Shown: positions 24,282 to 56,912, numbered from the stretch's first letter. The stretch is 64,000 nt of DNA from Candidatus Parcubacteria bacterium (GCA_021414235.1 JAIOOV010000004.1:473591-537590), one strand, 5' to 3'. The notes: generated from the sequence alone by a model not told the origin. A program made the numbers and translations.

Positions 24282-26123
24282 TTATGCCTCAGGGAATTCC
24301 TTGCGGCTCTCGCGAGCAGCCATGTCCATGACACGGGATACTGCGAGACGTGCGCCCAAGAGCTTCGAGCTGTAGCTCTCATCCCCTGCTCCGATGAGTG
24401 CCGTGATGGCGGACTCGAGCGTCTGGAGGCTCCAGCCGGCGGTCGCAGTAAGCGACTGCTCGTTGGCACCAATCTCACGCACAGTGCGGAAGCGGTGTAC
24501 CTTGTCGAGCTCGTAGGAAGCCGCCTTGAGGAACTCAGGGATGTTGTGACCCTGCGCATCGAGCATGTGGAGGAGCGCAGAACTCTTGGTGCTGTTCCCT
24601 GCTGCGAGCCAGCGTACGAACATCGGCACCATAGAGAGATAGGTGGAGAAGAGCATCTCGCGGACACGCGTTGCCGAGAGCGAGAGCCAAGAGTATTCCG
24701 GCTTCTCGTACCAGGCATGCGCCACTTCGGTGAGTTCAGAGAGAACATTCTGGGCCTGCTCTGCCTTACCATCCGCTGCAGAGAGGATGAGGGCAGCTGC
24801 ATCCTCGGAGAGGAGGATTTCCTTCTCACGAGCGTAGCTTACGAGCATCTCATAGATGCGAGTCTTCTCCTCATTGCTCATGCCGGTCGCAACCTTAGGT
24901 GCTGCAGGAGCCGCCTTGAGGGTGCGAATCTGGCTTACGAGATCAAGCGGTGCATCAGCTTCCTTGCGGAGAGCGAGTGCTGCCGGAGCTGCCACTACCT
25001 CAGGGGTAGCAACTGGCTCTGCAACCTCTTCAACAACAGGAAGCGAGACTTCCATCACCGAGCTTAGAGCGACAGTGCGCGGCAGCGGCGTGAACGGATT
25101 AAGGAGATCTGCATAAGGCTTGAGTGCAGCGCCCACGGAGAGAGCGTAGCGGGACATGTCATCCCCCATGGAAGCGAGAGGCTGGAATACCTGCATCGAG
25201 CGCGAGATACCACCGGCATAGACCATGCCGTAGGAGAACATCGCGGAGAGACCAAGAAGCCCGAAGAGGAAGAAATACGTGAAGAGGGTGTCGCCTACGC
25301 CGGTGTACGGGATGGAACCGAGGTTCACCGAGACGAAGGATGCGAGCGGAGAGCTGCCAGTCACGCGGGTGAGCTCGACGTTCGGCATCGTACCGCCGCC
25401 GCCGGTGGAGCTACCGCCACCAGAAGAACTGGAAGACGAGCTGCTACCACCGCCAGAGGAAGATCCTGGAGGAGGCGGAGGAGGTGGGGGCGGAGGAGGA
25501 GGCGGAGGCACTTCTATACCGCCAGAGGAAGAACCGGAAGAAGAACCCGGAGGAGGCGGAGGAGGTGGGGGCGGAGGAGGTACCTCTATACCACCAGAGG
25601 AAGAGCTAGGAGGTGGTGGTGGGGGCGGCGGAGGAGGCGGAGGGGAAGGAGGTTCGATGTTCGGACCCGCTTCTATAGGACCACCAGAGGAGGAACTACC
25701 TGTCTCGCCGCCGGAAGATGAGCCACCGCAGCCCTCGCAGCCACCCGAAGAGGAGCCCATACCATCGCTGGAGCCGCCACATCCTTCACAACCGCCAGAG
25801 GAAGAACCCATGCCGTCGCTAGAGCCACCACAACCCTCGCAGCCACCGGAAGAGGAGCCCATACCATCGCTGGAGCCGCCACATCCTTCACAACCGCCAG
25901 AGGAAGAACCCATGCCGTCGCTAGAGCCACCCTCGGCTCCGCCACCGTCGCCGCCACCATCCGAGGAGCCCATGCCGCCACCGTCGCCGCCTTCCTGAGC
26001 AAAGACGCTGGAAATGGAATTACCAGTAAAATTATTCGAAAGAGAAAAACCGACCACGAATGAGGCTATGGTGAGCACGAGGGCACTGCTGATGATTAGA
26101 TTTTCTTTAAGGAATTGGTTCAT
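24282..26123 (-). CDS. Surface protein with Gly/Ser/Cys repeats, poly-Pro stalk, IPYTG motif, TM helix and C-terminal domain
   Basis: N-terminal hydrophobic segment, 4x GGSSDGMGSSSGGCEGC, three poly-Pro runs, IPYTG at 25299-25313 followed by a hydrophobic helix. Confidence 0.85.
   Translation of the reverse strand: MNQFLKENLIISSALVLTIASFVVGFSLSNNFTGNSISSVFAQEGGDGGGMGSSDGGGDGGGAEGGSSDGMGSSSGGCEGCGGSSDGMGSSSGGCEGCGGSSDGMGSSSGGCEGCGGSSDGMGSSSGGCEGCGGSSSGGETGSSSSGGPIEAGPNIEPPSPPPPPPPPPPPPSSSSGGIEVPPPPPPPPPPPGSSSGSSSGGIEVPPPPPPPPPPPPPPGSSSGGGSSSSSSSSGGGSSTGGGGTMPNVELTRVTGSSPLASFVSVNLGSIPYTGVGDTLFTYFFLFGLLGLSAMFSYGMVYAGGISRSMQVFQPLASMGDDMSRYALSVGAALKPYADLLNPFTPLPRTVALSSVMEVSLPVVEEVAEPVATPEVVAAPAALALRKEADAPLDLVSQIRTLKAAPAAPKVATGMSNEEKTRIYEMLVSYAREKEILLSEDAAALILSAADGKAEQAQNVLSELTEVAHAWYEKPEYSWLSLSATRVREMLFSTYLSMVPMFVRWLAAGNSTKSSALLHMLDAQGHNIPEFLKAASYELDKVHRFRTVREIGANEQSLTATAGWSLQTLESAITALIGAGDESYSSKLLGARLAVSRVMDMAARESRKEFPEA
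25720..25931 (-). repeat. Coding tandem repeat, 4 x 51 bp (organised as 2 x 102 bp)
   Basis: Unit encodes GGSSDGMGSSSGGCEGC; alternate units share codon usage. Confidence 0.9.
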
Positions 26124-41890: not shown

Positions 41891-44020
41891 TTAACGCTCC
41901 TCGAAGCGGGGGCTCACCCGGCAGGTAAAGGAGGCGGTATTGGAGACCTTGGCATCCCCGACCCGGCAGACGAAGCGGTAGAGAGACTGGACGGAGACCG
42001 GTGGAGTAAGGACCTGACCAAAAGCGCCGTTGGCGCGCACAGAGAGGTCGGGTCCTGAGATGACACAACGGAGGAACTGAGACTGCTCCGGCGGCACCGA
42101 GCTCACCCGCCAAGGGATGGTGCACTGAGAACCCTTCTGGACGAGCTCTCGCTCCGGCATGAGAGCAGTCACCGCGAGCGCACAGGCCTGCTCGCCAGGA
42201 GGCGGAGGAGCATCAGAGGATTCGTCGGGACAATAGTAGAGAGAGCGGGTTACGCCGCAGGAATTAGGGGCAGACTTGGCTTCAGCAGCTGGCTGCATCT
42301 CGTGGCGAGTGCACTCACCGTCCTTGTCAGTCGCAGTGCAGACATTGCACATCTTGGTCGCGCCGCAGGTAGGACACGGGATCTCCTGACAGGAAGGGAA
42401 TCTCCCCGTCTCTCCTACCCCACAGCTTGTGCGCGGCTGACAGGAGCCGGTCAGTCCGAAATTGATCGCAGTAGGATCCGTACAGAGAGAGCGTCCGCTC
42501 GAATACTGGCAGGCGCCGAGCGCACCGCCATTGAGCGCCAACGGATCGTTGCAGCGGACTGCGCCATAGCGACACTCTCCCGTTTCTCCATAATTGAGAG
42601 CGGTCTGGTCCGCGCAGAGACGCGCGACCGGCTGGTCGGTGCACTGCCCGTTCTCCGGATTCCAATTCGGCTGATTGCTCGGACAAGTGAGACCGATGAT
42701 CACGTCTTTCGTCGCGGGGCACTGAACACCGCTCGGCAGAGTCATGGAAGCGGTAGCCCGGAAATGGTACTGCTGCTTAGGCTGGCTTGCCGCCAGGACA
42801 CCCTCAAGAGAGCGACCATCATTCACCACCGCAAGAGAGGAGGGGAAGGACGTATCACCAGAGGAAGGAGTGAGCGAGTAGCTCTGCGCCGGACGCGAAG
42901 TCTGGATGGTATAGCCTCCGAAGCTTCCCCCTATGATTCCCGCAACACTGCCAGAGCTGGTGATGGTGGGCGTAGAGGTGGCGCACACAGAGGCGGGAGC
43001 TATGGTGATAGCCACGTTCTTTGAAGCTGAAAGAGGGGTACAGCCAGGCGCGCTATTCTCCGCTTGAATGGTACAGGAATATGAACCAGCCGATGTGGGT
43101 ACTCCCCCGATCGACAGAGGACTCGTCCAGCTCGTACCGGAAGGTATGGGCAGACAGCTCATACCGAGCGTCGTGTAGTTGCTGGCAGTTGCTTGATATG
43201 AGAAATTCTCGCCCACCACGCCCGCTGCTGTGCCAGAGGAAGTGATCTCCGGAGCTACAGTCGAACACGTTGCCGGAGTTACTTCTATCTCAAGCACATC
43301 CGCACGTGAACAGCTCGGAGAATTCCTCATGTAGTATCTGTCCTCGCCGCTCCCCGCCACCGTACTGCTCTGGTTATCCCCGGCTCCACCTTCATAGACC
43401 CACTCCTCAAGGTCATTACGAGAAGTGAGGGCTACGGAGTATGTCCCTGGAACAGCAGGCACTCCGGAGATGATGAGACCAGTGGAGTCTGGCACCTGGG
43501 TTACGCCCGCACGCGCCTGCACCCGAGCACTCAAGACGTTCGCGGAAAGGCCGGAACCCGTGAGGCCCGCTGGATCAAGCGAAGTGATACCTGCCCCGAA
43601 CCAGCCTGACTCAAATTCCCCCTTCTCCCGGAGCTGCGGATGCTCCCAAGGAGCAAGATCACGAGAAGGATTGGGATTCACCTGAGCGACCATCACTTCG
43701 TATGAAAAAGATTGACCGGCCTGCGTGGTGACACGGAGGGGACTCGAGAAGCGCGGCGTATTGTATTCAGTGCAATACTGAGGGCTGTAACACTGGCTGC
43801 CGGAAGCACTGCAGTCATCTATATTATTCATTTCCGCTCCGCACTGGCCTCCCGTACAGTCACTGTTACCAGCAGGACTTCCTGAGCTCGTTTCGCTGCC
43901 GCCAGCATCCTCAGCAGCAAGAACTGCAGGAATCTGTCCGATCACAGACAAGTGAATTCCCATGCCCCCGAAGAGAGCAAGCGCGAATGCGGTAGCGAGG
44001 ATAAAAGGAATTTTTTTCAT
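41891..44020 (-). CDS. Large Cys-rich exported protein with Ig-like repeats and shared C-terminal PxFEE domain
   Basis: ATG at 44020 (MKKIPFILATAFALAL), PxITSSG..G..G..F.Y repeats, CxDxxALNxG repeats, ends CRVSPRFEER. Confidence 0.8.
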   Translation of the reverse strand: MKKIPFILATAFALALFGGMGIHLSVIGQIPAVLAAEDAGGSETSSGSPAGNSDCTGGQCGAEMNNIDDCSASGSQCYSPQYCTEYNTPRFSSPLRVTTQAGQSFSYEVMVAQVNPNPSRDLAPWEHPQLREKGEFESGWFGAGITSLDPAGLTGSGLSANVLSARVQARAGVTQVPDSTGLIISGVPAVPGTYSVALTSRNDLEEWVYEGGAGDNQSSTVAGSGEDRYYMRNSPSCSRADVLEIEVTPATCSTVAPEITSSGTAAGVVGENFSYQATASNYTTLGMSCLPIPSGTSWTSPLSIGGVPTSAGSYSCTIQAENSAPGCTPLSASKNVAITIAPASVCATSTPTITSSGSVAGIIGGSFGGYTIQTSRPAQSYSLTPSSGDTSFPSSLAVVNDGRSLEGVLAASQPKQQYHFRATASMTLPSGVQCPATKDVIIGLTCPSNQPNWNPENGQCTDQPVARLCADQTALNYGETGECRYGAVRCNDPLALNGGALGACQYSSGRSLCTDPTAINFGLTGSCQPRTSCGVGETGRFPSCQEIPCPTCGATKMCNVCTATDKDGECTRHEMQPAAEAKSAPNSCGVTRSLYYCPDESSDAPPPPGEQACALAVTALMPERELVQKGSQCTIPWRVSSVPPEQSQFLRCVISGPDLSVRANGAFGQVLTPPVSVQSLYRFVCRVGDAKVSNTASFTCRVSPRFEER

Positions 44021-44021
44021 A

Positions 44022-44936
44022 TTAGTTCCAAGAAGAGAGGTAGAGCGTGCCACCTTCGTATGGAGAGAGGTCGAGGATACTCCTACGCTCTCCCGTGTCG
44101 AGCCGCTCGATGACGATCTCGAACTGCGACGCCTCCCCCTTACGTACTCGGAGAGCTGCGTACGCGTTGTCTGGCGAGAACGCCGCATCATACGCTCGCG
44201 CCTCAAGAGTATCGTTGAGAAGAAGCTCCTTCGGATTCACCGGGTTCACCTTGAGCAGCATTACTCGCTCGAGGCCGGGAATGAGCCAGGCAACCAAAGA
44301 GTGATCCTGGCTTGCGGCGAGCTTCATGCCAGCCCCGCTCGCTCCCCAAACCTTGGTCTTGGCGAGAGTCCCTAGGTCGTAGCGCACCAGGCCTTCTGGA
44401 GCGAGCGCAAAGAGCGATTTCCCATCAAGGGACCAGACGGGATAGCTTCCCGCGCCGATGCGGCGTGGAGTCCCTGGGAGATCTATTGCATAGATATCCG
44501 AGCCGCCTCTCGCTTCCTGAGAGTACGCAAGCCCCGTACCCACCGGAGACCAGTCTGGGGAATGCCTAAAGGCTTCTCCACGAGTGATCGGACGACGTTC
44601 CTCCGTAGCGGGATCATAAATGACCACCTGGCTCGCCAGGGCTCCGGGACCGTAGGCGATATGCGCGAGACGATTGCCATCAGGAGCCACTGCCGCATCG
44701 AAATTGGAATTACTATCGCGACCGATACGACGGAGCTCTTTGGTCGCAAGCTCATACTCATACAAATTCACCTCCGTACTCCCTTTATCCGCAAGCGAAA
44801 GGAGAAGTGTGCCCTGAGGATCGAACTTAGCCAAGGACGCAGAGCGCTGATAGAAATACACGCCGAGAGCGGCAGCGAGAAGGAGTATGGAGAGGACTCC
44901 AGCGACGAGGCGAGTACGCGAGGACATTGCGTCCAT
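44022..44936 (-). CDS. TolB-like/PD40 beta-propeller protein, membrane-anchored
   Basis: APDGNRLA, PDWSPVG, PVWSLDGK, FSPDNA repeats. Confidence 0.85.
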   Translation of the reverse strand: MDAMSSRTRLVAGVLSILLLAAALGVYFYQRSASLAKFDPQGTLLLSLADKGSTEVNLYEYELATKELRRIGRDSNSNFDAAVAPDGNRLAHIAYGPGALASQVVIYDPATEERRPITRGEAFRHSPDWSPVGTGLAYSQEARGGSDIYAIDLPGTPRRIGAGSYPVWSLDGKSLFALAPEGLVRYDLGTLAKTKVWGASGAGMKLAASQDHSLVAWLIPGLERVMLLKVNPVNPKELLLNDTLEARAYDAAFSPDNAYAALRVRKGEASQFEIVIERLDTGERRSILDLSPYEGGTLYLSSWN

Positions 44937-44994: not shown

Positions 44995-45426
44995 TTACTG
45001 CTGCACCTCGATTGATCCGCGGAAGCGGGCGTGGAGATGATCATGCATATTCCACTTACCTATCCTCTCGAACTGGAAGGAATAGGTTTCTCCAGGACCT
45101 ACCGGCTTGTCAGAATCGAATTCGGAATAGATTTCGTGCGTCGGATGAAGGTCAGAAGCTGGCCAGTGGAAATCCTTGCCGACATTCACGAACTCTATAA
45201 TCTGGCCCTTCTTGATGACGAGAGTAGAGGGCTCGAAGCCATCGTCAGTCATGTTCACCGTGATCCTAGGGAGAGCAGGCGTAGAAGAAGCGGTATCTGG
45301 CGTAGTAGTAGCTATATTTTCTGTAGGGGTCTCCACGACCACCTCAGGTGCCGTGCGGTTGGTCCAGTAATACCAGCCGCCGCCGAAGACTACGATGACT
45401 ACGGCAAGAAGTATGAGTTTATTCAT
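44995..45426 (-). CDS. Cupredoxin (plastocyanin/azurin-fold) protein with His-rich site
   Basis: GFEPSTLVIKKGQIIEFVN, HWPASDLHPTH, PGETYSFQF, MHDHLH. Confidence 0.85.
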   Translation of the reverse strand: MNKLILLAVVIVVFGGGWYYWTNRTAPEVVVETPTENIATTTPDTASSTPALPRITVNMTDDGFEPSTLVIKKGQIIEFVNVGKDFHWPASDLHPTHEIYSEFDSDKPVGPGETYSFQFERIGKWNMHDHLHARFRGSIEVQQ

Positions 45427-45920
45427 CGTGAACGCAGGGAAAAGTAAGTAATAGCGCCGCCCGCGAAGAACGCGGCGAGTACCGATAATAGCATACCGAG
45501 AGGAACGGATGATTTGGACGTCTCCGCCTTTTCCGCCTCAAAAGTGAAAGTATGTTCTGCCACGGTTCTGCCCCCCTTCTCAAAACGCACATCCATCTCA
45601 TAGGCCCCCTCCTGCGGAAAACGATAAGTAAGCACCGTCTTGCCGATATCCGCCTTAGCTATGCCCGTAGCGAAATACGCGGCGGAGCCTCTACCGAGAC
45701 GCACCCAGATATGGTCGAAGGCTATTTCTTCCCCTCCGGCATCAAGAACGGAGAAATCAAAAATCGTACTCTCCCCCGAGACTGGAGCAGAAGAGTATCC
45801 GATATCCATCAGAACTCCCGAAGAGAGAGTAGCTTCAAAGGAAGCGCTTTCACCGTGTGCCGCAACGGTACACGGGATGAGCAAGATCGCAATAATGTAA
45901 AACGAGAGTGCGTATTTCAT
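45423..45920 (-). CDS. Exported protein with mature N-terminal His and C-terminal TM anchor
   Basis: Signal peptide ending VAA-HGE, beta-rich body (YRFPQEGAYEMDVRF), C-terminal hydrophobic helix; ATG at 45920. Confidence 0.7.
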   Translation of the reverse strand: MKYALSFYIIAILLIPCTVAAHGESASFEATLSSGVLMDIGYSSAPVSGESTIFDFSVLDAGGEEIAFDHIWVRLGRGSAAYFATGIAKADIGKTVLTYRFPQEGAYEMDVRFEKGGRTVAEHTFTFEAEKAETSKSSVPLGMLLSVLAAFFAGGAITYFSLRSR

Positions 45921-45924
45921 GATG

Positions 45925-47133
45925 CTATGGACGAGCGCCGCAATGCTCCTGCCACTTCTCCGGAAGGAGAGAACAGAGACGATTCGACTCTGGGGAGCCG
46001 GCATGGAAGGTGAAGCTTGCAGTGCGCACCATGATGTCATAACAAGTCTCCCCTACCCCCTTCGCTTCCGCAGCAGCACAGAGGGCTACGGAGCGTTCGA
46101 TATTGCGGTAGTCGTTCTCCAGGAGGCGGGAAGCCGCATCCGCATAACAGAGCCCGCGATCCTCCGGAAGCATAGTGTCGCAGAACGCGCCGATCTTCTC
46201 GTTATCGAATTCAAGCTGCGCCACGAAGACGAACACCAAGGCATGCTTGCAGCGCTCGCGAGGGCCGGCTTCAGAGAGCTGGTTGCACCAGCGACTAATA
46301 GCGCCTGGCGCCTTCAGCTCTTCTCGCTGAAGCGGCCAGGATTCGCTCCAGCAAGACGCCTTGTCGTAACCGCTATAAGCGGAACAATACGCACGCTGGG
46401 TCCCCGTAGCCACCTCCTTACCCTTGATGAGGTCGAAGTCGTCCGGCTCGAGCGGCTGGAAGATCTGCATGAACACGCCATCGGAGCAGACCTGACTCAT
46501 ATCCTGCCCCGGCTTTATGGAAAGTTCCCTGCACAGACCGAGCGATTTCGGGATATCCGCGCGAGTGATGTACATAAGCAGATGCCCGAGCGCATGGTAG
46601 CAGCTCGCCTGTTCGAGCCCCGTAGGATTGAAGCTATCCTGCGGCTCGCACACGTTCGCGAATTCGGGTTTGTACTTTTCGATCTCGCTGTCAGAGAGAG
46701 ATTCTGTACGGAAGCGTTCTTGGAACGCGCCGTGGATGCAGCCGTTGGAGCATACGCCAGATGGACAGCGCTGGATCACCTCCGTCCACTTATCCGGATC
46801 CTTGGCGGTTTCCTTGGCGCTGATCTTGTGCCCGAGCACATGGCAGTAGGTGTAGGTCTTGTCCTTGGCTTGAACTACTGCTGCGACGCGCACCGCATCC
46901 TCCATGGAAACGCCCTTGTCCATGAGCTTGGGGATCTCGTCTTCGTAGCAGGTCGGACGATATCGTGCGCTCGCGCAAGCGGCGACGACCTCGTCAGCGT
47001 AACGCACCAGACGCATCCCCGGATCAGGAGCAAGCATGGGAGCGGCGAGTATGTAAATCTCACCAAAGAGGAAAGCCGCGAGGATAACGATAGCGGCAGC
47101 AAACTTCGTATGCTTCTTTAAAAACGAGTTCAT
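45925..47133 (-). CDS. Exported Cys/His-motif protein, paralogue A
   Basis: CHVLGH, GCIHG, CYHALGH, CSDGVFMQ; N-terminal TM helix. Confidence 0.85.
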   Translation of the reverse strand: MNSFLKKHTKFAAAIVILAAFLFGEIYILAAPMLAPDPGMRLVRYADEVVAACASARYRPTCYEDEIPKLMDKGVSMEDAVRVAAVVQAKDKTYTYCHVLGHKISAKETAKDPDKWTEVIQRCPSGVCSNGCIHGAFQERFRTESLSDSEIEKYKPEFANVCEPQDSFNPTGLEQASCYHALGHLLMYITRADIPKSLGLCRELSIKPGQDMSQVCSDGVFMQIFQPLEPDDFDLIKGKEVATGTQRAYCSAYSGYDKASCWSESWPLQREELKAPGAISRWCNQLSEAGPRERCKHALVFVFVAQLEFDNEKIGAFCDTMLPEDRGLCYADAASRLLENDYRNIERSVALCAAAEAKGVGETCYDIMVRTASFTFHAGSPESNRLCSLLPEKWQEHCGARP

Positions 47134-47134
47134 A

Positions 47135-48145
47135 TCAGCGGATTATCTGAGAACCGGCCACACAGCTCTGTCGTGCATCTTCCGAAAGTCCGGCGCAGAG
47201 CTGAGGCGAGAGATCCCGCACGCGAGGCTCTGCGAAGAAGCTCCAGGAAGCCCCCTGGCGGCACAGCAGCTGTTCTTCCGTCCCAACGAGACTATTGCAG
47301 ACAGCGAGAGACTTCTTTACATCATACCCCGACTCCGGAGCCACGATATTGCCGATACCTTTGAAGCACGCCTCCCGCTCGCCCTTCGCACCAACCTCGG
47401 CACAGAGAGCGGCTGCTGGAGCGGCATCTCCATTAAATGTCCGCATCCACCATTGCGGCATATCGAAATAGCAGGCTTCGCGATATATGGAAAGAGCGTC
47501 GCAGGGCGCATGCGCCTTCTTCGGGTCGAACATGCGCGGGGAGGTAAGGTCGGGATCAGCCATCGTATGAAAATTGTACTCCATGAAGACTCCGCCGGAG
47601 CAGCCGCCGATCGGTCCTTTCCAGGTGAGCGTCGCACAGATATCGAGCGCCTCCGCGAGTTTGTCATCGCCGACAGACCACAGGAGGCCGTGCCCGATTC
47701 CATGCGAGCAGCCCAGGCCCTTCTCTCCCCACGCTGCCACGCAGGCGCGATCAAGCTGGCCAAGCACTTCTACCCCATGCTCGCTGATGGCCCGCCCGAA
47801 GAAGCTGTGGTAGCAGCCGAAGCCGAACGAGCTGTCACAGACCGCGACCCCAGGAAGTCCCTCTTTCTCATACAGTAACTCCCCAAAGACATGCGCAAGC
47901 GAATGCGCCGAGCCAGGCGGAAGCTTTCCGTACACCTCCACGAATTTCTGGTACGCAGCCTTCGCACCCAGCGTATCTATGGTCTCTGCCCACTCAGCCT
48001 TCTCACGCTTAAAATATTTGGATTGGAGCCGTGGTGGATCAGGGACCTCGGTGCCGCGCGAGATATACAGATAGTATGCTTCGCCAGCTACGAAAAAGAT
48101 CAGGATAGCGGCGGCGAAAATAAGTTTTAACGGGTAACGGCGCAT
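47135..48145 (-). CDS. Exported Cys/His-motif protein, paralogue B
   Basis: AHSLAH, GCYHS, CSHGIGHG, CSGGVFME; N-terminal TM helix. Confidence 0.85.
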   Translation of the reverse strand: MRRYPLKLIFAAAILIFFVAGEAYYLYISRGTEVPDPPRLQSKYFKREKAEWAETIDTLGAKAAYQKFVEVYGKLPPGSAHSLAHVFGELLYEKEGLPGVAVCDSSFGFGCYHSFFGRAISEHGVEVLGQLDRACVAAWGEKGLGCSHGIGHGLLWSVGDDKLAEALDICATLTWKGPIGGCSGGVFMEYNFHTMADPDLTSPRMFDPKKAHAPCDALSIYREACYFDMPQWWMRTFNGDAAPAAALCAEVGAKGEREACFKGIGNIVAPESGYDVKKSLAVCNSLVGTEEQLLCRQGASWSFFAEPRVRDLSPQLCAGLSEDARQSCVAGSQIIR

Positions 48146-49332
48146 GAGGCAGTATAGGGTTGCGGATAAGCAGCGCAGAACTCTCTCATGTAACGACCAT
48201 CGCGGCCTCTAAAATAACGCGCCATATCTGCGAGCCGGGTGAAGCAATCTCTCTGATCGCCCTCTTCCGGAATCACGCTGCAGTAACGTACCGAGGCATG
48301 GAAATCATTCTCCCCTCCCCAATAAAGCGAAGCGACTGCCTGAAAGGAGCAATCCCTCCTGCCATCTTCCGCTGGCGAGAGCGAGCACCACTCATACATC
48401 GTACGCATAGCCTCATCCGGAAGTGATGTCACCGCACGTACATCGCGAGAAGAGAGGATTACCGGGAACTCCTTACCGAAACCACCGAAGCAGGCGCGCC
48501 GATCCTCTCTCTGTGTGAGCGCGTCACAATAGGTCATGCCAATCCTGAAATCTTCCGCCTTCGGAGCTCCCAGATTGCCTCCGGCAGCCTCCATAAGATG
48601 CGGAGTGAGGTAGGTGTAGCAGAAGCCGCGCACATCCTTCGGCATGAAATCCGCGTCACAGGGATAGAGCGGATCTTCCTCCTTGAAATATTTCTTCGCC
48701 TTCTCCTCGCGGAGCTTAGGATCATGTACGCCGCCGGTCATCTCCATGATGGTGCCGCCGATGCACTCCTGGTATTCGTTCGCCTTGTTACCAGCAGATT
48801 CCCCCGCGCGCTTACAGAGCGGCACCGCCTGATCCAGTTCGTAATCCGTATATGCAAGCACGCCATGCCCCAGGCCGTGATAGCACATGTTGTACGCTCC
48901 GGCACCGCCGGGAGCCTTGCGACAGATCGCAGCCACCTTCTCGAGCACGGGCGGCCCGAACTCGAGAAGCGCGCCGATCACTACCGTATGCGAGCAGGCG
49001 TTGCGCAGATCAGGCGTGCAGTAGGCCATACCCTCGAGGCCATATTGCTTGTAGAGCTCATCCCCCACCGTATGTCCCACGAGATGCATGTCCACACCGG
49101 GGACAGAAGGCATGCGGATGAGCACCTGGTACGCATACGGAGCACCTTTGGCTTCGGCAAGATCCCGAAAGTATCGCGAGAGCTCGGGGAAGGAGCGTGG
49201 TGTCTGGAGTTCAGCGAGTTCCGGATATGAACCCGCGCTCGCAAAGAGAAGATAGCCCCCGAGAGAGAGATTCAGAAGGAGAAGGGCGGCAGCTGAAGAG
49301 AGAATCAGCCGGTACCGGAAGAGAGACCGCAT
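48127..49332 (-). CDS. Exported Cys/His-motif protein, paralogue C
   Basis: MHLVGH, ACSHT, CYHGLGHG, CIGGTIME; N-terminal TM helix. Confidence 0.85.
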   Translation of the reverse strand: MRSLFRYRLILSSAAALLLLNLSLGGYLLFASAGSYPELAELQTPRSFPELSRYFRDLAEAKGAPYAYQVLIRMPSVPGVDMHLVGHTVGDELYKQYGLEGMAYCTPDLRNACSHTVVIGALLEFGPPVLEKVAAICRKAPGGAGAYNMCYHGLGHGVLAYTDYELDQAVPLCKRAGESAGNKANEYQECIGGTIMEMTGGVHDPKLREEKAKKYFKEEDPLYPCDADFMPKDVRGFCYTYLTPHLMEAAGGNLGAPKAEDFRIGMTYCDALTQREDRRACFGGFGKEFPVILSSRDVRAVTSLPDEAMRTMYEWCSLSPAEDGRRDCSFQAVASLYWGGENDFHASVRYCSVIPEEGDQRDCFTRLADMARYFRGRDGRYMREFCAAYPQPYTASCAVTR

Positions 49333-49342
49333 CAAGAAGTGA

Positions 49343-49937: not shown

Positions 49938-50795
49938 TTAGATCTCCTCAAAAGCAGGATTGACCCGGCAATCCACCGTCTTCGAGGTATTAACTTCAGA
50001 ACCGTTGTAGCAACGTACTGTGTAGGTACTCGTCTCGGTGACATTCGGTACGGATACCGAACCGGATGTCCCTGTCTGGCTCACTCCTGGGCCCGTGACC
50101 GTGCAGGAAGTAGCATTCGTCGCTGACCAGGTGAAGCTGCAGGAAGCGCCTTTGTTGATCACGATGGAGGGAGCGGCAGGAACCGTGGTGATGGTGGGCG
50201 CCGTACAAGAGGATTCCGGCGGAGCCACGGTAGCGGAACACGCACCCGCACAGCTATACGTACCGTAGGTCACCGCGCCGCAGCTATTAGCGGCAGATGT
50301 ACAGACCTGTCCCTGGTTGGCAGAGCAATAAGAAGCTTGGTAGTAGCCCTGGGAGTAGTAGTAGCCTTGATAGTACCCCTGCGAGTAATAGTAAGGTTGG
50401 TAATACCCCTGAGAGTAGTAGTAGCCTTGGGAATAGTAGTAGCCTTCGTAATACCCCTGGTAGTAAGACTGGTAATAACTTTGATAATACGATTGATAGT
50501 ACCCTTGGTAGTAACCCTGGTAGTACCCCTGATAGTAGGATTGGTAGTAGCCTTGGTAATACCCCTCTGCATAAGAATCCCCCGAAGCCGGGAGTATGAC
50601 TCCTCCCTCCTCTCCATTCGGTGAGAGCGAGTTGTAATCAATCTCTGGAGACTGCGGACCAGAGCTCTTCTCCAAATACCCCAAACTTGCTAGAGAGATG
50701 ACGAGAAAGATTGCCACACTCGCAAAGGAAAGGAGCCTGCGCTCGCGGAGTAGGTTAGAAAATCTTTTATTTATTTCACGAAAAAAGTGCCTCAT
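49938..50795 (-). CDS. Exported Tyr/Gln-repeat protein, paralogue 1
   Basis: TM helix, conserved 30-aa segment, (YYQG/YYQS)n then (YYYSQG)n, Cys-rich segment, ends CRVNPAFEEI. Confidence 0.85.
   Translation of the reverse strand: MRHFFREINKRFSNLLRERRLLSFASVAIFLVISLASLGYLEKSSGPQSPEIDYNSLSPNGEEGGVILPASGDSYAEGYYQGYYQSYYQGYYQGYYQGYYQSYYQSYYQSYYQGYYEGYYYSQGYYYSQGYYQPYYYSQGYYQGYYYSQGYYQASYCSANQGQVCTSAANSCGAVTYGTYSCAGACSATVAPPESSCTAPTITTVPAAPSIVINKGASCSFTWSATNATSCTVTGPGVSQTGTSGSVSVPNVTETSTYTVRCYNGSEVNTSKTVDCRVNPAFEEI
50221..50345. repeat. 125-bp exact direct repeat (with 51141-51265)
   Basis: Read base by base; identical including third codon positions. Confidence 0.9.
50571..50660. repeat. 90-bp direct repeat (with 51551-51640; 2 mismatches)
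   Basis: Encodes GPQSPEIDYNSLSPNGEEGGVILPASGDSY in both paralogues. Confidence 0.9.
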
Positions 50796-50857
50796 CGTAC
50801 GTCTTTTATTGTAGCACTATGTAAACCCCCCTGACACCAGCGAGGTACGTCCAATTC

Positions 50858-51775
50858 TTAGATTTCTTCAAAAGTCGGATTGACCTGGCAGTTCACCGTC
50901 TTTGTGGTATTCACCATGGAGCCATTGTAACAACGCACTTGGTAGCTTCTCGATTGCGTGATATCAGGGACAGACACTGAGCCCGAAAGACCAGTGGAAT
51001 TCACCCCAGGACCGGTCACGACGCAAGAAGTAGCATTAGCACTGCTCCAGCTAAAGCTGCAAGCATCGCCTCTATTGATGACGATTGTCGGAGAAGGAGG
51101 CGCAACAGTGATAACTGGGACGACGCAGGAAGATTCCGCAGGAGCCACGGTAGCGGAACACGCACCCGCACAGCTATACGTACCGTAGGTCACCGCGCCG
51201 CAGCTATTAGCGGCAGATGTACAGACCTGTCCCTGGTTGGCAGAGCAATAAGAAGCTTGGTAGTAACCTTGATAATAACCTTGATACGCCGCTTGATAGG
51301 CGGACTGGTAATAGCTCTGGTAGTAGGATTGATAAGCAGCCTCATATCCAGCTTGGTAATACCCTTCGTAATAAGGCTGATAGTAGCTCTCGTACGTAGA
51401 CTGATATTGGCTCTGGTAATACGCCTCGTAGGTCGACTGGTACTGGCTTTGATAGTAACCCTCGTACGTAGACTGATATTGGCTCTGGTAATACGCCTCG
51501 TAGGTCGACTGGTACTGGCTCTGGTAATAGCTTTGGTAAGCAGCTTCAAAATAAGAATCCCCCGAAGCCGGGAGTATGACTCCCCCCTCCTCACCATTCG
51601 GTGAGAGCGAGTTGTAATCAATCTCTGGAGACTGCGGACCGTTATCAATCGGCTGAAGGTAGCTCAAGGCGGAAATCACAGCCAAAACCAGAGCCAATAC
51701 CGCCAGAAAGAGCAACTTCCGATCACACAGCAAAGCGCCCATATTACGCCGCCATCTCTTAAGAAGGTACTTCAT
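50858..51775 (-). CDS. Exported Tyr/Gln-repeat protein, paralogue 2
   Basis: Same architecture; 12-aa units YE(A/G)YYQSQYQST; ends CQVNPTFEEI. Confidence 0.85.
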   Translation of the reverse strand: MKYLLKRWRRNMGALLCDRKLLFLAVLALVLAVISALSYLQPIDNGPQSPEIDYNSLSPNGEEGGVILPASGDSYFEAAYQSYYQSQYQSTYEAYYQSQYQSTYEGYYQSQYQSTYEAYYQSQYQSTYESYYQPYYEGYYQAGYEAAYQSYYQSYYQSAYQAAYQGYYQGYYQASYCSANQGQVCTSAANSCGAVTYGTYSCAGACSATVAPAESSCVVPVITVAPPSPTIVINRGDACSFSWSSANATSCVVTGPGVNSTGLSGSVSVPDITQSRSYQVRCYNGSMVNTTKTVNCQVNPTFEEI

Positions 51776-51784
51776 CCTATTTTG

Positions 51785-52609
51785 TTACTGAATCGCACTT
51801 AAGTCTGCCCCAGAGAGGAGTAGAAGATTTTTCTCTACAGAGCGCAGAGAACCCGCAAGACCTTGTGGATGATATCGAGCGTCGTTCCCAGGGTACGCCC
51901 TACCCCACTCCTCTGGCGTCATGGCTTTGAAACCAGCAAGAGCTTTCTCCAGGGCACTACGAGCCTCTTCCCTCTCTCCGAGATTAAGGAGCGCAACACC
52001 AAGAGAGTTCTGAAGCCAAGGATTCTCCGGATGATAAGAAAGGGCCTTTTCTGCAACCGTAAGGACATCCTTATAGCGACCCTGCCGAAAATAGATCCAA
52101 CAGAGGTCATTCGCTCCCGCCCAGCTCTCCGGTTCCAATTCCAGATACCTAGCGAAGTCACCCTCTGCCTCCGAGAGATTATTCCTATATCCGTACACAA
52201 GCCCACGCATGTAATAAGCGTTGTGGATGGAAGAATCCAGCCGCAGGGTCTCGTTTATAGCCTCGATAGCTTTGCTATAACGCCCCTGAAAGAAATAAAC
52301 CCGGGAGAGACCGAAATGGATATATCCCGGCTCTGGATACCCTAAGTCGAGAGCCCTCTTATAAAGTTCCTCTGCCTTCTTTAGGTCATGAGCATTCTCT
52401 CCGAGATAAAAATTACCCGCGCGATAGGCTAAGCTAGCATCCTCCGGCGCAAGCGCGAGAGCTACGGCAGGCATATGTAGCCTCTCCATAAACACATGGG
52501 CCCACAAGGGTCGATGGAAATCGACATAGGAATAGAGGCTCTTCCAACTAAGAAGAGTCGTGAGAGCGAGGAGAAGACCAAGGAGGCAAAGAACCGCACG
52601 CAGGCGCAT
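51785..52609 (-). CDS. Membrane-anchored tetratricopeptide repeat protein
   Basis: Several TPR units (AYYMRGLVY, LQNSLGVALLNLGEREEA). Confidence 0.85.
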   Translation of the reverse strand: MRLRAVLCLLGLLLALTTLLSWKSLYSYVDFHRPLWAHVFMERLHMPAVALALAPEDASLAYRAGNFYLGENAHDLKKAEELYKRALDLGYPEPGYIHFGLSRVYFFQGRYSKAIEAINETLRLDSSIHNAYYMRGLVYGYRNNLSEAEGDFARYLELEPESWAGANDLCWIYFRQGRYKDVLTVAEKALSYHPENPWLQNSLGVALLNLGEREEARSALEKALAGFKAMTPEEWGRAYPGNDARYHPQGLAGSLRSVEKNLLLLSGADLSAIQ

Positions 52610-52652: not shown

Positions 52653-54119
52653 ATGAATACCCAGTATCAAAGAGAAGACCCGCGCAGACTTGAGGTTGCG
52701 ATCCGTACAAAAGATTTTGCTTCTCTCTATGTGAAATCTTACTGGAAACGAAGTTTCCTAGAAGCCCTCCTTGGGACCCTGGAGGAACGTCTCGGGATAG
52801 AAATCTTGACCAAAGTACCGGAGAATCTTCGTGATGTTCACCTGCTGATATTCAAGAACCTGACAATCATAGAAAAATTGAGGAGACAGGGAATATTAGA
52901 GAAGGTCGAAGTCCTTAATCCTCCACCAGATGAGCCCCCTCTATACCGCGTTCATACAAAGGGCCATCTTCGCGCCTCCGGTGCAAGCTTCCTTGATCCT
53001 GAAAAAGCCCTGTGGAGCGCGCTCGGGGAGTGCGTCGAACGCTCTCTATGGTCAGGCTCTTCGGAATGGTACGAAAAGAAGATCAAGGTCTCTTCGTATA
53101 AAGAGCTTCCTGGGGATAAGATAGACCCCCGCTCAATTACTGGTTTCTCCGAGGAACAGAAGAGCTTGGATCCGATGCTACAAGTGGATGAATCGACAGT
53201 TCTCGGCTGGGTACAAGCCAAAGAAAAAATCTCCGGAAAGATGATCTGGGTACCTCTCCAGCTTTTCAGCGCCGAATATTGCCAGAAGAGACAGAAGTCT
53301 CCTGAACGACCGGAAAACGTCGAGCCACTTCTCCGTTCCGCCGTAACCACAGGACTCGCGACTTCTTCACATAGCCACGAAGAAGCCGTCCTCTACGGGG
53401 CATTGGAAGCGATCGAACGCGATGCTTTCATGATCTGCTGGCTCAAACGCCTCTCGCCTCCTCGCATCGATATCAATCACCTCGCCGAACAAGACGATGA
53501 TCTGAAAAGCATTCTTGATTCCCTGGCTCGCTACCACCTCCGTGCAGAACTGCTTCTACTTCCGACTGATTTTCCTTTCCTGGTCATCGCAGCCGTTCTG
53601 CTCGATGAAAGCGGAAAGGGGCCGGCGTTTACTATGGGCGCAAAGGCGCATTGGGATATGAAAACCGCCATCCTTGGAGCCCTCTCTGAAGCCGCTAGCG
53701 TACGCTTTTCTCTTAAAACCGCATACGAAGCCCCTGTGGACATGAAGAAGGTCGGTCGCAAGGAGCGCTTGATCTATTGGGCAAAGGAGGAAAACACCCC
53801 GAAACGCAGCTTTCTTACACAGGGGGAAATAAGAAAGATCACTCTAGAAGAGAATAAGAGTGATACTGGCACAGAATCTCTCCGACTGTCGGAAGCCTTG
53901 AGAAATAAGAAATATCCATTGTATGAAGTCGAGATAAGTTCCGAAGCAAGCCGTAGAAGCGGTTTTCGTTCAGTCTGTGTGCATATCCCTGACCTGCAGC
54001 CGATGCATCTCGACGAGCGAGTTCCCGCTCTCGCCGGAAAACGCCTGGCAGAGATTCCCTCTCTCCTCGGATACGAACCCGCCAAAGAAATGAATCCTGA
54101 ACCCCACCCCTTTCCATGA
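52653..54119 (+). CDS. YcaO-family cyclodehydratase
   Basis: SALGECVER, TTGLA...EEAVLYGALEAIERDAF, GALSEA, C-terminal NPEPHPFP (PxP tail typical of azoline-forming YcaOs). Confidence 0.93.
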   Translation: MNTQYQREDPRRLEVAIRTKDFASLYVKSYWKRSFLEALLGTLEERLGIEILTKVPENLRDVHLLIFKNLTIIEKLRRQGILEKVEVLNPPPDEPPLYRVHTKGHLRASGASFLDPEKALWSALGECVERSLWSGSSEWYEKKIKVSSYKELPGDKIDPRSITGFSEEQKSLDPMLQVDESTVLGWVQAKEKISGKMIWVPLQLFSAEYCQKRQKSPERPENVEPLLRSAVTTGLATSSHSHEEAVLYGALEAIERDAFMICWLKRLSPPRIDINHLAEQDDDLKSILDSLARYHLRAELLLLPTDFPFLVIAAVLLDESGKGPAFTMGAKAHWDMKTAILGALSEAASVRFSLKTAYEAPVDMKKVGRKERLIYWAKEENTPKRSFLTQGEIRKITLEENKSDTGTESLRLSEALRNKKYPLYEVEISSEASRRSGFRSVCVHIPDLQPMHLDERVPALAGKRLAEIPSLLGYEPAKEMNPEPHPFP

Positions 54120-54874
54120 ATAACCATTTCGCCAAGCGGTTCCATCATCAAGCCATCGCGAACTGGCGTCTACCCAAAACTCGCGATGCCAAGAATCCGA
54201 TCCCCAGGGAAGATATCTTATTCAAGACATACCCTCGCTCTGAAAACACGGCGCTCGCCGAGCCGCTTCCCCTCAGCCATACACTCGAGAAAACCCTCTC
54301 CGAGCGGAAGACGACGCGCTCCTTCGATCCAGTCTCCGCCGTCAGTTTCCAAGAACTCTCTTCCCTGCTCTTCTGGAGCGCCGGACTTAGAGAGAACCGT
54401 ACAGACCCACAACAGAGCAAACGGTTCTATCCATCCGCGGGAGAACGTTATCCGCTAGAGATATATATAGCTGCGCGCAACGTCGATGGCTTGCCTAAAG
54501 GCCTGTATCACTTCAATCTCCTCAAGAACTCTCTGGAGAAGATAGGTGGTGAGGAATACTGCGATAATTTTCAAAAAAACCTCGGGTACGAATGGTCTAG
54601 GGATACCGCAGTAGCCATCCTCATCACCGGAGTATGGGAGCGGACTTTCTCAAAATACGGGGATTTCGGATATCGGCTCATATGTACAGAAGCCGGACAT
54701 GTGGCGCAAAATCTACAGCTCATAGCCCAATCCCTTGGTCTGGACTATGCCTCTATCGCAGGGTTCAAAGAAAAAGAGATGGATACCCTCCTAAATCTGG
54801 ACTCGGATAAAGAATCATCTCTCTACCTGACCCTCATAGGAAAAGCTACACCTTCCACCCGAACGAACGCATGA
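54116..54874 (+). CDS. SagB/ThcOx-family FMN-dependent dehydrogenase
   Basis: ERKTTRSF, RFYPSAGERYPLEIY, KYGDFGYRL, EAGHVAQN; ATGA overlap with the YcaO gene. Confidence 0.93.
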   Translation: MNNHFAKRFHHQAIANWRLPKTRDAKNPIPREDILFKTYPRSENTALAEPLPLSHTLEKTLSERKTTRSFDPVSAVSFQELSSLLFWSAGLRENRTDPQQSKRFYPSAGERYPLEIYIAARNVDGLPKGLYHFNLLKNSLEKIGGEEYCDNFQKNLGYEWSRDTAVAILITGVWERTFSKYGDFGYRLICTEAGHVAQNLQLIAQSLGLDYASIAGFKEKEMDTLLNLDSDKESSLYLTLIGKATPSTRTNA

Positions 54875-55940
54875 GTGCGGCGAACTCTTCATCTACCAGA
54901 GAAATACGTTCTACATTAAGCCGCGTCTGTACATCGGACAGAGCCTCTTTGCTTGCCAGGTACTTATAGAAACGCTCGTTGCGATACGCAGGATCAGAGA
55001 ACGGCGCAAGGAGGACGGATATCTCTCCCGCTTTTGACTTTCCATACTGTTGAGAAAGATACAGGGCGTATTGATACCCTGTCCAAATGCGCTGATCACG
55101 GTTACCCTCCGTCAGATTCCACGCCTCTTTATAGAGAGCCTCTGCTTCAGCTGCATGATCTTCGCCTGTGAGAGTAGCGATGCCGAGCAGGATAGCCTGT
55201 CGCGTGATGCGCGCGGAAAGCACGGAATTATCGAAGCCCAAGGTACGGGCTGCGATGAGTTCATCGTTGCCTATGCGTATCGCCTCGTGCACCTGGTTCC
55301 ACAGAGACTTAAGATTTTCTTCATCCGCGCTCGTACGAGCCTGCCTCACACTGAGCGCAAGGATCTCAGGGAAGGATTTATCAAAAGAAATACGGAAGAG
55401 AGAGACAGCCGTAGGATAAAAAGAGCTTGCATACTCCGAGAGTCGAGTATATGCCGCCTCAATATTCCCATTGGAGTTGAAGGCAGAGTACGGGGTCTTG
55501 TCGAAGACGTATTTCGAATATTCCGGATCTTTGTTATTAGCCAAGTAAAGCTCGCCCATAAGCTGGATAGACCAAGCGCGAATGATGTCCGCATAATTCT
55601 CATTGGCAGCCACCTCTCGGAGCGTAGCTATAGAACTCTGATATTCCTTAGCGAGTCCCTGAGCATACCCCACATTATATTTGATATACCCTTCTTGATT
55701 GAGATCCTGGGCATCAAGCAATGCCGCTTGGAAGAAGGGAATAGCTTTAGAGAATTCACGGGCCTTCATGTGCGCAAGACCTTTTTTGAAATCCGCATTC
55801 TGCTCCCTAACATACGTCACCGTATTCGGCTTCACAGAGGGTTCTTGCGATTGAGCATAAAGATAATAAATACTCCCCAAGAAGAGAACTAGGAGCAAGG
55901 CGCCGATAATAGTGCGGGATGTGAGATAAGAGCGAAGCAT
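54846..55940 (-). CDS. Membrane-anchored TPR-like helical protein
   Basis: N-terminal TM helix; FKKGLAHMKAREFSKAIPFF and IKYNVGYAQG TPR-like units. Confidence 0.75.
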   Translation of the reverse strand: MLRSYLTSRTIIGALLLVLFLGSIYYLYAQSQEPSVKPNTVTYVREQNADFKKGLAHMKAREFSKAIPFFQAALLDAQDLNQEGYIKYNVGYAQGLAKEYQSSIATLREVAANENYADIIRAWSIQLMGELYLANNKDPEYSKYVFDKTPYSAFNSNGNIEAAYTRLSEYASSFYPTAVSLFRISFDKSFPEILALSVRQARTSADEENLKSLWNQVHEAIRIGNDELIAARTLGFDNSVLSARITRQAILLGIATLTGEDHAAEAEALYKEAWNLTEGNRDQRIWTGYQYALYLSQQYGKSKAGEISVLLAPFSDPAYRNERFYKYLASKEALSDVQTRLNVERISLVDEEFAALMRSFGWKV

Positions 55941-55943
55941 GAT

Positions 55944-56201
55944 TTAGGAACCACCGCACCCCTCGCAACCACAGCCATCGGCGCTACCGCCGCCATCCCC
56001 TCCACCTGAACACTCACAATCCTTCCCGCCTCCCTGCGCAAGCACTGAGGAAATCTTCTGTTCGCTCCAGAAGGAAGCATCTCCATTCGACCTATCAAGC
56101 GCCGCATGAAACATGAAAGCGGCGCTTACCCCCGCCACGACGCCCAACCCCTTCATAATTGTAGAGAAAAAGTTCTTCACGTATGCAATTAATATTAGCA
56201 C
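55944..56201 (-). CDS. Small Gly/Ser/Cys-rich peptide, candidate azol(in)e RiPP precursor
   Basis: Hydrophobic N-terminal segment, ISSVLAQ, then GGGKDCECSGGGDGGGSADGCGCEGCGGS; start GTG 56201 or ATG 56156; stop 3 bp before the TPR gene. Confidence 0.7.
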   Translation of the reverse strand: MLILIAYVKNFFSTIMKGLGVVAGVSAAFMFHAALDRSNGDASFWSEQKISSVLAQGGGKDCECSGGGDGGGSADGCGCEGCGGS

Positions 56202-56242: not shown

Positions 56243-56271
56243 TTGACATAATTGTTTATATACTATATAAT
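56243..56271 (+). promoter_or_regulatory. Consensus sigma70 promoter
   Basis: TTGACA-17 bp-TATAAT, followed by an AGGAGG RBS of the 56310 ORF. Confidence 0.8.
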
Positions 56272-56309: not shown

Positions 56310-56912
56310 ATGCTGAAGCTGTTCTTCGTCATCTTGCTCATCTCGCTCGGCAGCGCGACCGCTGCCAGCGCCCAAACCAATAGTTGTAACACTGAGACGA
56401 GGCCCCACCTTTGCATCTGCAAAGTGGCGCTGCTCCAGGAAACTATCGGGGAAGAATCTCCAATCAGCAAAGAAGATGATCTAGACGCACGCGGGGCCCA
56501 CGAAGGATACTTCATGCCCCAAATGAAATGCGTCGGCTTCTACATCCAGCGAAAATGGTACGACACCACGACGGAAAAGTGGCTGATCAAATACATATAC
56601 GTCTGGAACATGGGCGCGCTCCGTGGACAGCGGGTCTCCCGAATCGAAGTCATGCAAAAAGGGGGAACCTACTTCAAGGTCACCGGCCTCGACGCCTGTC
56701 GCGATGACCACTACTTGGGAGTCACTTTCACCTACAAAGACTCCCTCCGTGGCGACTGTGACGGCACGACGTTCTCTGCGCAAATCCATAAGATGCAAGA
56801 AGCGCGAGTCCGAGCCCCTCTCGGCAGCTCCACAGCGGCGGTGCCGATTCCCGACACCTCGACCGTCGCATCCCCTCCCCCAGCTACCACACGAGGAGGG
56901 AGCAAGGATTGA
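56310..56912 (+). CDS. Hypothetical secreted protein
   Basis: Signal peptide (ATAASA-Q), strong RBS, own promoter and terminator. Confidence 0.75.
   Translation: MLKLFFVILLISLGSATAASAQTNSCNTETRPHLCICKVALLQETIGEESPISKEDDLDARGAHEGYFMPQMKCVGFYIQRKWYDTTTEKWLIKYIYVWNMGALRGQRVSRIEVMQKGGTYFKVTGLDACRDDHYLGVTFTYKDSLRGDCDGTTFSAQIHKMQEARVRAPLGSSTAAVPIPDTSTVASPPPATTRGGSKD

Follow-up and report, generated by a model that had tools for sequence, protein, structure and literature searches.

A YcaO-SagB gene pair in a Candidatus Parcubacteria genome and a family of candidate precursor peptides with membrane-helix leaders

The DNA analyzed here (the window) is a stretch of 64,000 nucleotides from a Candidatus Parcubacteria bacterium (GCA_021414235.1, JAIOOV010000004.1:473591-537590), whose 695 kb genome, in five contigs with a completeness score of 100%, contains only one YcaO. 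At 52653-56201 this YcaO is coupled to a SagB-type oxidase and faces a small open reading frame (ORF) on the opposite strand, belonging to a family of peptides with a hydrophobic leader and a Gly/Cys/Ser-rich core that we consider the likely substrate. The features of the locus are as follows, a slash marking the candidate cleavage position here and below:

52653..54119, + strand: YcaO cyclodehydratase, 488 aa, with PF02624 and the expected motifs; residues 63-488 form a canonical YcaO fold ending in PHPFP
52653..52838, + strand: YcaO residues 1-62, an N-terminal extension with a predicted strand-helix-helix-strand order, confined to the clade whose leaders are membrane helices
54116..54874, + strand: SagB-type flavin mononucleotide (FMN) azoline oxidase, 252 aa, with TIGR03605 and K180-Y181
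54846..55940, - strand: c2, 364 aa, with an N-terminal membrane helix and an all-helical body resembling tetratricopeptide repeats (TPR)
55944..56201, - strand: precursor peptide with basic N-region, hydrophobic helix, linker, VLA/Q site and core
56097..56150, - strand: the precursor's hydrophobic helix (residues 18-35, numbered in the 85-aa frame)
55947..56036, - strand: 30-residue core QGGGKDCECSGGGDGGGSADGCGCEGCGGS, with 5 Cys and 3 Ser, following the conserved Ala55

A first-pass annotation had described the two enzymes as a coupled azoline-type YcaO and azole oxidase, and both family matches and motifs bear this out. The SagB start overlaps the YcaO stop by 4 nt (ATGA). The YcaO matches PF02624 (E 1.6e-48) and scores 198.7 bits against TIGR03604, slightly below the 219 cut-off, and 76.4 against TIGR03266, far below cut-off; E126-x-x-E129-R130, E252-x-x-E255-R256, E346, R372 and the C-terminal PHPFP are conserved among 133 homologues. 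SagB scores 140.9 bits against TIGR03605 (cut-off 78.4) and carries PSAG, EAGH and K180-Y181, the last aligning with the KY of the oxidase BmdC. Two hallmarks of linear azol(in)e-containing peptide (LAP) or thiazole/oxazole-modified microcin (TOMM) systems are therefore present: a YcaO of the azoline type, with its ATP-binding Glu motifs and a C-terminal PxP, its sub-cut-off TIGR03604 score notwithstanding, and an FMN dehydrogenase with Lys-Tyr. Neither enzyme has a signal helix, so any modification should be cytoplasmic.

The small ORF, with its hydrophobic N-terminal segment and the core previously quoted for it, is real in the sequence and convergent with the enzymes. Its product has 85, 78 or 70 aa, counted from the first GTG, the GTG at 56180 or the ATG at 56156, respectively; the 78-aa form is the likely one, judging from the best match to related sequences. 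The 1.07-kb gap between precursor and SagB is occupied by c2 (54846-55940, -), which begins 3 nt past the precursor stop. No second Cys/Ser-rich small ORF was found near the YcaO within the window. There is no NCBIfam model for the window peptide or 18 relatives, and no Pfam family for the window peptide. A perfect TTGACA-17-TATAAT at 56243-56271 (+) is directed away from the precursor and precedes a 200-aa secreted-type ORF at 56310; the promoter scan as a whole returned 4 sites against 3.4 expected and carries no information on the cassette genes.

To place this peptide in a family we gathered 199 YcaO loci, 169 of which remained after reduction to <90% identity, many of them short or of other clades. 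A motif filter for precursors gave 70 matches in 63 of the 169 loci (2.0 Mb), about 4 being larger proteins of the c4 type described below, and a precursor profile search adds 11 loci. Applied to the whole 695-kb genome of the window, the same filter yields 3 matches (the precursor, a 613-aa ORF and one other), a contrast with the YcaO loci which argues that the precursor is not a chance ORF. The family layout is a basic N-terminus, a hydrophobic helix, a linker of ~23 residues, an AxA/DxP-type site and an acidic Gly/Cys/Ser core. Among the 70 filter matches the N-region is net-positive in 99%, the helix-to-AxA linker has a median of 23.5 residues, and the site shows Ala at -3 in 39, Ala at -1 in 57, Asp at +1 in 46 and Pro at +3 in 30; AQG takes the place of ADxP in the window peptide and its same-genus relative. 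The cores are 33% Gly, 16% Ser, 13% Asp and 12% Cys, with 450 Asp/Glu versus 16 Lys/Arg in 2,987 residues and a C-terminal Tyr in 18 of 64. The distance to YcaO is below 500 bp in 39 of 70 cases and the strand is opposite in 55 of 70, so that the nearby conserved Cys/Ser/Thr-rich precursor expected of a LAP/TOMM system is also at hand. The earlier comparison with microcin B17 holds for the Gly/Cys/Ser make-up and fails for charge, the core being strongly acidic, unlike an antibiotic LAP; of the short polar leader, TldD/E removal and dedicated exporter typical of microcin B17, the leader here is hydrophobic and no TldD was found.

Leader type follows YcaO phylogeny. In a FastTree phylogeny of 140 full-length YcaO rows (29 partial rows omitted), membrane-helix precursors fall in an 84-row clade (local support 99; 59 rows with a precursor) and an 8-row clade. 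The first-pass annotation had proposed a signal- or membrane-helix-like leader and named lack of conservation beside homologous YcaO-SagB pairs as counter-evidence, which the loci do not bear out: in the large clade, the 42 rows with at least 3 kb on both flanks include a precursor in 36, c2 in 22, c1 (see below) in 30 and SagB in 40. A 26-row sister group consists mostly of shorter YcaOs, and the 16 of its loci viewed have short polar same-strand leaders beside YcaO, often with an M16 peptidase or C39-like gene. Polar-leader Cys/Pro-rich precursors and an M16 peptidase upstream of a shorter YcaO were seen in L110, L111, L119, L120, L124, L129 and L199. This shorter-YcaO clade is probably the type described by Sharrar et al. 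(PMC7298704).

YcaOs of the long clade carry an extra N-terminal module of ~40-60 residues. The distance from ORF start to the DEP motif has a median of 88 aa (n=67) versus 47 aa in the sister group (n=23), and an extension profile matches 50/67 versus 0/23. Homologues of the window itself went into the profile, whereas length is an independent measure. The extension therefore tracks leader type, which suggests, at the level of sequence, that it is a candidate binding module recognizing the leader or the membrane. An RiPP (peptide synthesized ribosomally and modified post-translationally) recognition element (RRE) or an E1 domain had been considered for this end of the protein; the extension is predicted to be neither, since its model lacks the strand/helix order of an RRE and residues 1-62 do not align to LynD/TruD.

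The E1-/ThiF-like partner with RRE that is usual, though not obligatory, in LAP/TOMM systems was not detected in the genome, where ThiF/E1 gave only a 37-residue match below cut-off and PqqD/RRE, TIGR03882 and TldD gave none; a very divergent partner is possible. Searched with the N-termini of seven longer YcaO rows (putative E1 domains), the 67 precursor loci gave no E1-like match; no dedicated peptidase was present in them, and an ABC ATPase occurred in 3. The initial impression that partner, protease and transporter are all unrecognizable is in agreement with these searches. The genome does encode SecA and signal peptidase I.

The same annotation had pictured a minimal three-gene locus. Instead, the peptide is tied more tightly to a membrane-anchored TPR gene and a cassette of secreted-type proteins that persists without YcaO. 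In 37 of the 70 filter matches c2 lies within 150 bp downstream of the precursor; its model is all-helical with an N-terminal membrane helix (pLDDT 93.2) and TPR-like by Atlas and PDB profile. Other members of the cassette lie on the far side of the YcaO:

51785..52609, - strand: c1, 274 aa, membrane-anchored TPR protein, divergent from YcaO and preceding the c4 genes
50858..51775, - strand: c4, secreted-type, with membrane helix, conserved linker, ILPA/SG site, Tyr/Gln repeats and a C-terminal Cys-containing domain
49938..50795, - strand: second, tandem c4 paralogue, with Tyr/Gln/Gly repeats

Proteins of c4 design (helix, conserved ~25-aa linker, IPA/SC) follow c1 in 20 of 25 cases. Over the 169 loci the recurrent neighbors are c1 (52), c2 (48) and another membrane-helix TPR family (26), together with Cys-repeat proteins, AMP-ligases, rhodaneses, DsbA-like, PRTase-beta-propeller and AMMECR1 proteins.

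We surveyed a sample of 301 genomes of the same order; many of these contribute rows to the profiles, and kin among them are not independent. YcaO occurs in 27 (16 of the long type, by our own call from top E-values and loci), c2 in 17 (with at most six candidates scored per genome) and c4 in 20; about 22 carry any cassette part plus precursor or c2, as against about 16 with a long YcaO. All but one of the 16 genomes with a long YcaO possess c2 or c4 (c2 itself was not found in 5 of the 16), and 8 genomes carry c2 or c4 without a long YcaO. Of the six inspected among these 8 (all but G054 and G158), G283, G276 and G249 stop at contig edges. In G051, G190 and G257 a set of precursor, c2, rhodanese, PRTase-propeller and c1 lies in the interior of long contigs, with YcaO missing at that place, and this is the chief finding against a simple reading of the locus; G051, a member of the window genome's family, has the cassette in the same prfA/rpmE neighborhood as the window. 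At E<=0.01 the precursor profile reports 44 genomes, in most of which it weakly matches a membrane helix of whatever kind; among the 17 with E<3e-4, G258 and G288 proved false on inspection, and the real precursors of G051 and G190 were overlooked. A single-protein scan of metagenome contigs gave no match, nor did one small polyA RNA run, which speaks neither for nor against expression. A contig matching 51611-56500 without any difference is probably the source sample itself and hence not independent.

Four precursors from YcaO-less loci have 2 Cys each and 3-6 Cys+Ser+Thr, compared with medians of 4 and 13 at YcaO loci, where 17 of 64 cores have 2 Cys or fewer. This poverty in cyclizable residues where YcaO is missing favors the core as YcaO substrate where YcaO is present, and YcaO plus SagB look like an optional plug-in tailoring module on a Patescibacteria export cassette.

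With moderate confidence, we propose that azoles are formed in the cytoplasm on a peptide with a membrane-helix leader, which is then exported by Sec. The clade-specific YcaO extension, rather than an E1 or RRE, would engage the leader or the membrane; YcaO would cyclodehydrate core Cys/Ser with ATP and SagB oxidize the products with FMN to thiazoles and oxazoles; the helix would serve as Sec signal in the N-in/C-out orientation; signal peptidase I, or another protease, would cut after AxA and before Asp or Gln; and the membrane-anchored, TPR-like c2 might hold or display the product at the surface. Sec would take the place of the E1/RRE partner, the dedicated protease and the transporter that such systems usually have. 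That the peptide is the YcaO substrate is likely, and if it is, azole chemistry is very likely. The N-region, helix and AxA pattern of a Sec signal are present, the charge bias of the precursors favors N-in/C-out, making an outward topology probable, and their -3/-1 residues obey the signal-peptidase rule. Cleavage is the weakest step and uncertain, owing to the unusually long linker.

Several observations weigh against this proposal. In ordinary signal peptides the stretch from helix to cleavage site is usually under about 10 residues, far shorter than the linker here, so cutting by signal peptidase is doubtful. The charge bias of c2 is weak (62% N-in) and its profile resembles LapB, whose TPR domain is cytoplasmic. 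The window precursor lies 1.8 kb from YcaO and convergent with it, where the usual arrangement is divergent; 3 of the 64 YcaO-locus cores lack Cys altogether; and since the cassette (precursor, c2, c1 and c4) exists inside contigs without YcaO, adjacency alone is no proof of substrate. Finally, bulky modifications make poor Sec substrates according to the bufferin paper.

In a different and rather unlikely arrangement, the peptide is modified but remains anchored in the membrane without being cut, or its core points to the cytoplasm; AxA-D-x-P would then serve recognition, and c2, as a cytoplasmic adaptor like LapB, would stand in for E1/RRE. The long linker, the position of c2 directly downstream of so many precursors, its LapB match and weak topology bias, and the missing E1/RRE all suit this arrangement; it is at odds with the precursor charge bias and -3/-1 residues, with the retention of c2 in YcaO-less cassettes and its apparent lack in some long-YcaO genomes, and with DsbA-like and membrane-anchored rhodanese neighbors, which point outward.

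Less probable still, the small ORF could be a generic secreted, Gly-rich, disulfide-bonded peptide of the TPR cassette, with YcaO-SagB as frequent neighbors acting on another substrate. The YcaO-less cassettes of G051, G190, G257 and probably G249, whose precursors all have exactly 2 Cys, fit this idea, as do DsbA-like genes in 5/67 loci and the Gly-rich segments that begin large surface proteins after AxA in YcaO-negative genomes too. Yet cyclizable residues are enriched where YcaO is present, 33 of 62 cores have an odd number of Cys, precursor and YcaO are usually a divergent pair less than 500 bp apart, and around the window YcaO there is no other Cys/Ser-rich small ORF, the genome offering only two other filter matches. 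It is very improbable that the YcaO makes thioamides or amidines with rhodanese neighbors as sulfur donors, although PMC12153355 reads YcaOs of candidate phyla radiation (CPR) genomes as thioamidation enzymes, because the SagB oxidase with KY is coupled to it, TIGR03604 outscores TIGR03266 and the C-terminus is PHPFP, the rhodaneses are membrane-anchored and found also in YcaO-less cassettes, and no TfuA appeared among the neighbors scanned or the recurrent families annotated (no genome-wide search for it was made).

Cytoplasmic azole formation followed by Sec export may extend to larger proteins.

24282..26123, - strand: 613-aa membrane protein, candidate second substrate, 30 kb away, with the AxA-like ISSVFAQ and four GCEGCGGS repeats

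After its N-terminal helix this ORF reads ISSVFAQ (ISSVLAQ in the precursor), and its four GCEGCGGS equal the last eight residues of the precursor. The repeat is confined to these two ORFs in the genome, and synonymous codons differ among all copies, making recent DNA duplication an unlikely source. Body homologues occur in 10 of 12 family genomes, YcaO-negative ones included, with different N-termini; the protein itself is therefore a generic one that recalls the peptide solely through the repeat at its N-terminus. At four loci cores are fused to Hint (intein-like) domains, by Pfam in L038 (twice), L080 and L174 and by eye in L181; these fusions begin at Cys (L038:5474-7064, L080:6746-7588, L174:2307-3125, L181:7065-7742), and the Hint domains could release or ligate the core C-terminus. 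The L028 core ends in GCF, resembling a truncated remnant. Other unannotated C-terminal domains follow a precursor-type leader and core at L026:8051-8842, L083:6843-7718, L084:1-612 and L031:7203-8822. A bolder and rather unlikely reading is that Patescibacteria operate a general surface-decoration platform, in which substrates with helix, long linker and small-residue site each have their own membrane-anchored TPR protein and are tailored by interchangeable enzymes; YcaO-SagB would install azoles in the small peptide and also in the repeats at the N-terminus of large surface proteins, the 613-aa ORF among them, and Hint variants would attach or release the core by autoprocessing. If true, episymbionts would place azoles on Sec-exported surface proteins without any E1/RRE.

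Further observations concern the surroundings of the cassette. The tandem c4 paralogues (49938-51775) have near-identical linkers, and long Tyr/Gln repeats replace the usual SCPSxPH Cys pair. YxQxxY-like repeats lie within the precursor cores of L034, L080, L100, L193, L202 and L280. Together with the sulfotransferase-like genes bordering L033/L034, they suggest Tyr as a possible second target of modification. At 44995-49335 (-) the window has a cupredoxin-like gene and three paralogous membrane-anchored Cys/His-repeat proteins without Pfam match, a family seen in 15 of 169 YcaO loci, 9 of them with a precursor; these upstream genes and the acidic, Lys/Arg-poor core hint weakly at metal binding or surface recognition over antibiosis. 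In a 771-aa secreted-type protein at 41891-44206 (-), AxA is followed by a segment of Gly/Ser/Cys; Cys repeats are numerous, and the C-terminus (PRFEER) resembles that of c4. PRTase-like/beta-propeller and AMMECR1/alpha-toroid proteins recur with or without YcaO (L026:13429-16677, L029:11042-12700, L034:10328-12217). SagB-YcaO fusions (726-743 aa) in the same order at L041:3742-6119, L043 and L045, one with a 43-aa polar precursor, are a separate system, and an open frame at G000:C1:4017-5168 (-) contains long TTTGG repeats, then CxxC in a Gly-rich context.

The family names likely substrates for many YcaO clusters counted in CPR genomes. If the proposal is true, a YcaO that works on signal-type leaders without E1/RRE would recognize its substrate in a new way and would offer a compact tool of two enzymes for installing azoles on secreted peptides; retention of the cassette in symbionts with reduced genomes points to a surface chemistry, as yet unexplored, that serves contact between CPR and host or the handling of metals.

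The locus resembles known LAP systems in its YcaO with PxP-type C-terminus, its FMN oxidase with Lys-Tyr and its Gly/Cys/Ser-rich core. It differs in that no E1/ThiF/RRE partner, TldD or exporter was found in the searches above, the YcaO having instead a small extension predicted not to be an RRE, and in that the leader is a membrane helix with long linker and AxA rather than short and polar, and the core acidic. Bottromycin YcaOs use a follower peptide and form a macroamidine and one thiazoline, and we know of no SagB-type oxidase adjoining them. As proposed for the present YcaO, they work with no partner protein (PMC7136475). Sharrar et al. 2020 (PMC7298704) counted 110 LAP clusters from 93 CPR genomes, 51 of them Parcubacteria; a nitroreductase accompanied 89 of the clusters, and these share with ours a YcaO beside a nitroreductase; many of our loci are probably among them. 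Their Microgenomates example (YcaO, nitroreductase, peptidase and 84-aa precursor) matches by gene content the polar-leader sister clade with M16 peptidase, and membrane-helix leaders, TPR partners and a missing E1 are not mentioned in the accessible text, though the figure and supplements may list some of these precursors. The precursor family is likewise not described in the accessible parts of PMC8939145, PMC10885120 and PMC12710340, and a literature search made largely without subscription journals found no publication on YcaO substrates with Sec-type leaders or on the present cassette. The closest parallels in export are bufferins, oxazolins and chryseobasin-type RiPPs, in which (PMC11626156, PMC13056109) the precursor bears a Sec-type signal, a cytoplasmic enzyme converts Cys to heterocycles and the general pathway exports the product; the substrates of these MNIO enzymes can be small peptides or a 34-kDa secreted protein, showing that cytoplasmic modification followed by Sec export works. 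Those systems use MNIO/DUF692 with an RRE-containing DUF2063 partner where YcaO/SagB stand here (neither family was among the 17 window proteins scanned; no genome-wide search for them was made), and the present c-region is by comparison very long and the core low-complexity. With the tested core features of a LAP system present and the usual E1/RRE partner lacking, the system is real and conserved, is set on a cassette of TPR and secreted proteins specific to CPR, and is predicted to combine LAP-like chemistry with bufferin-like export.

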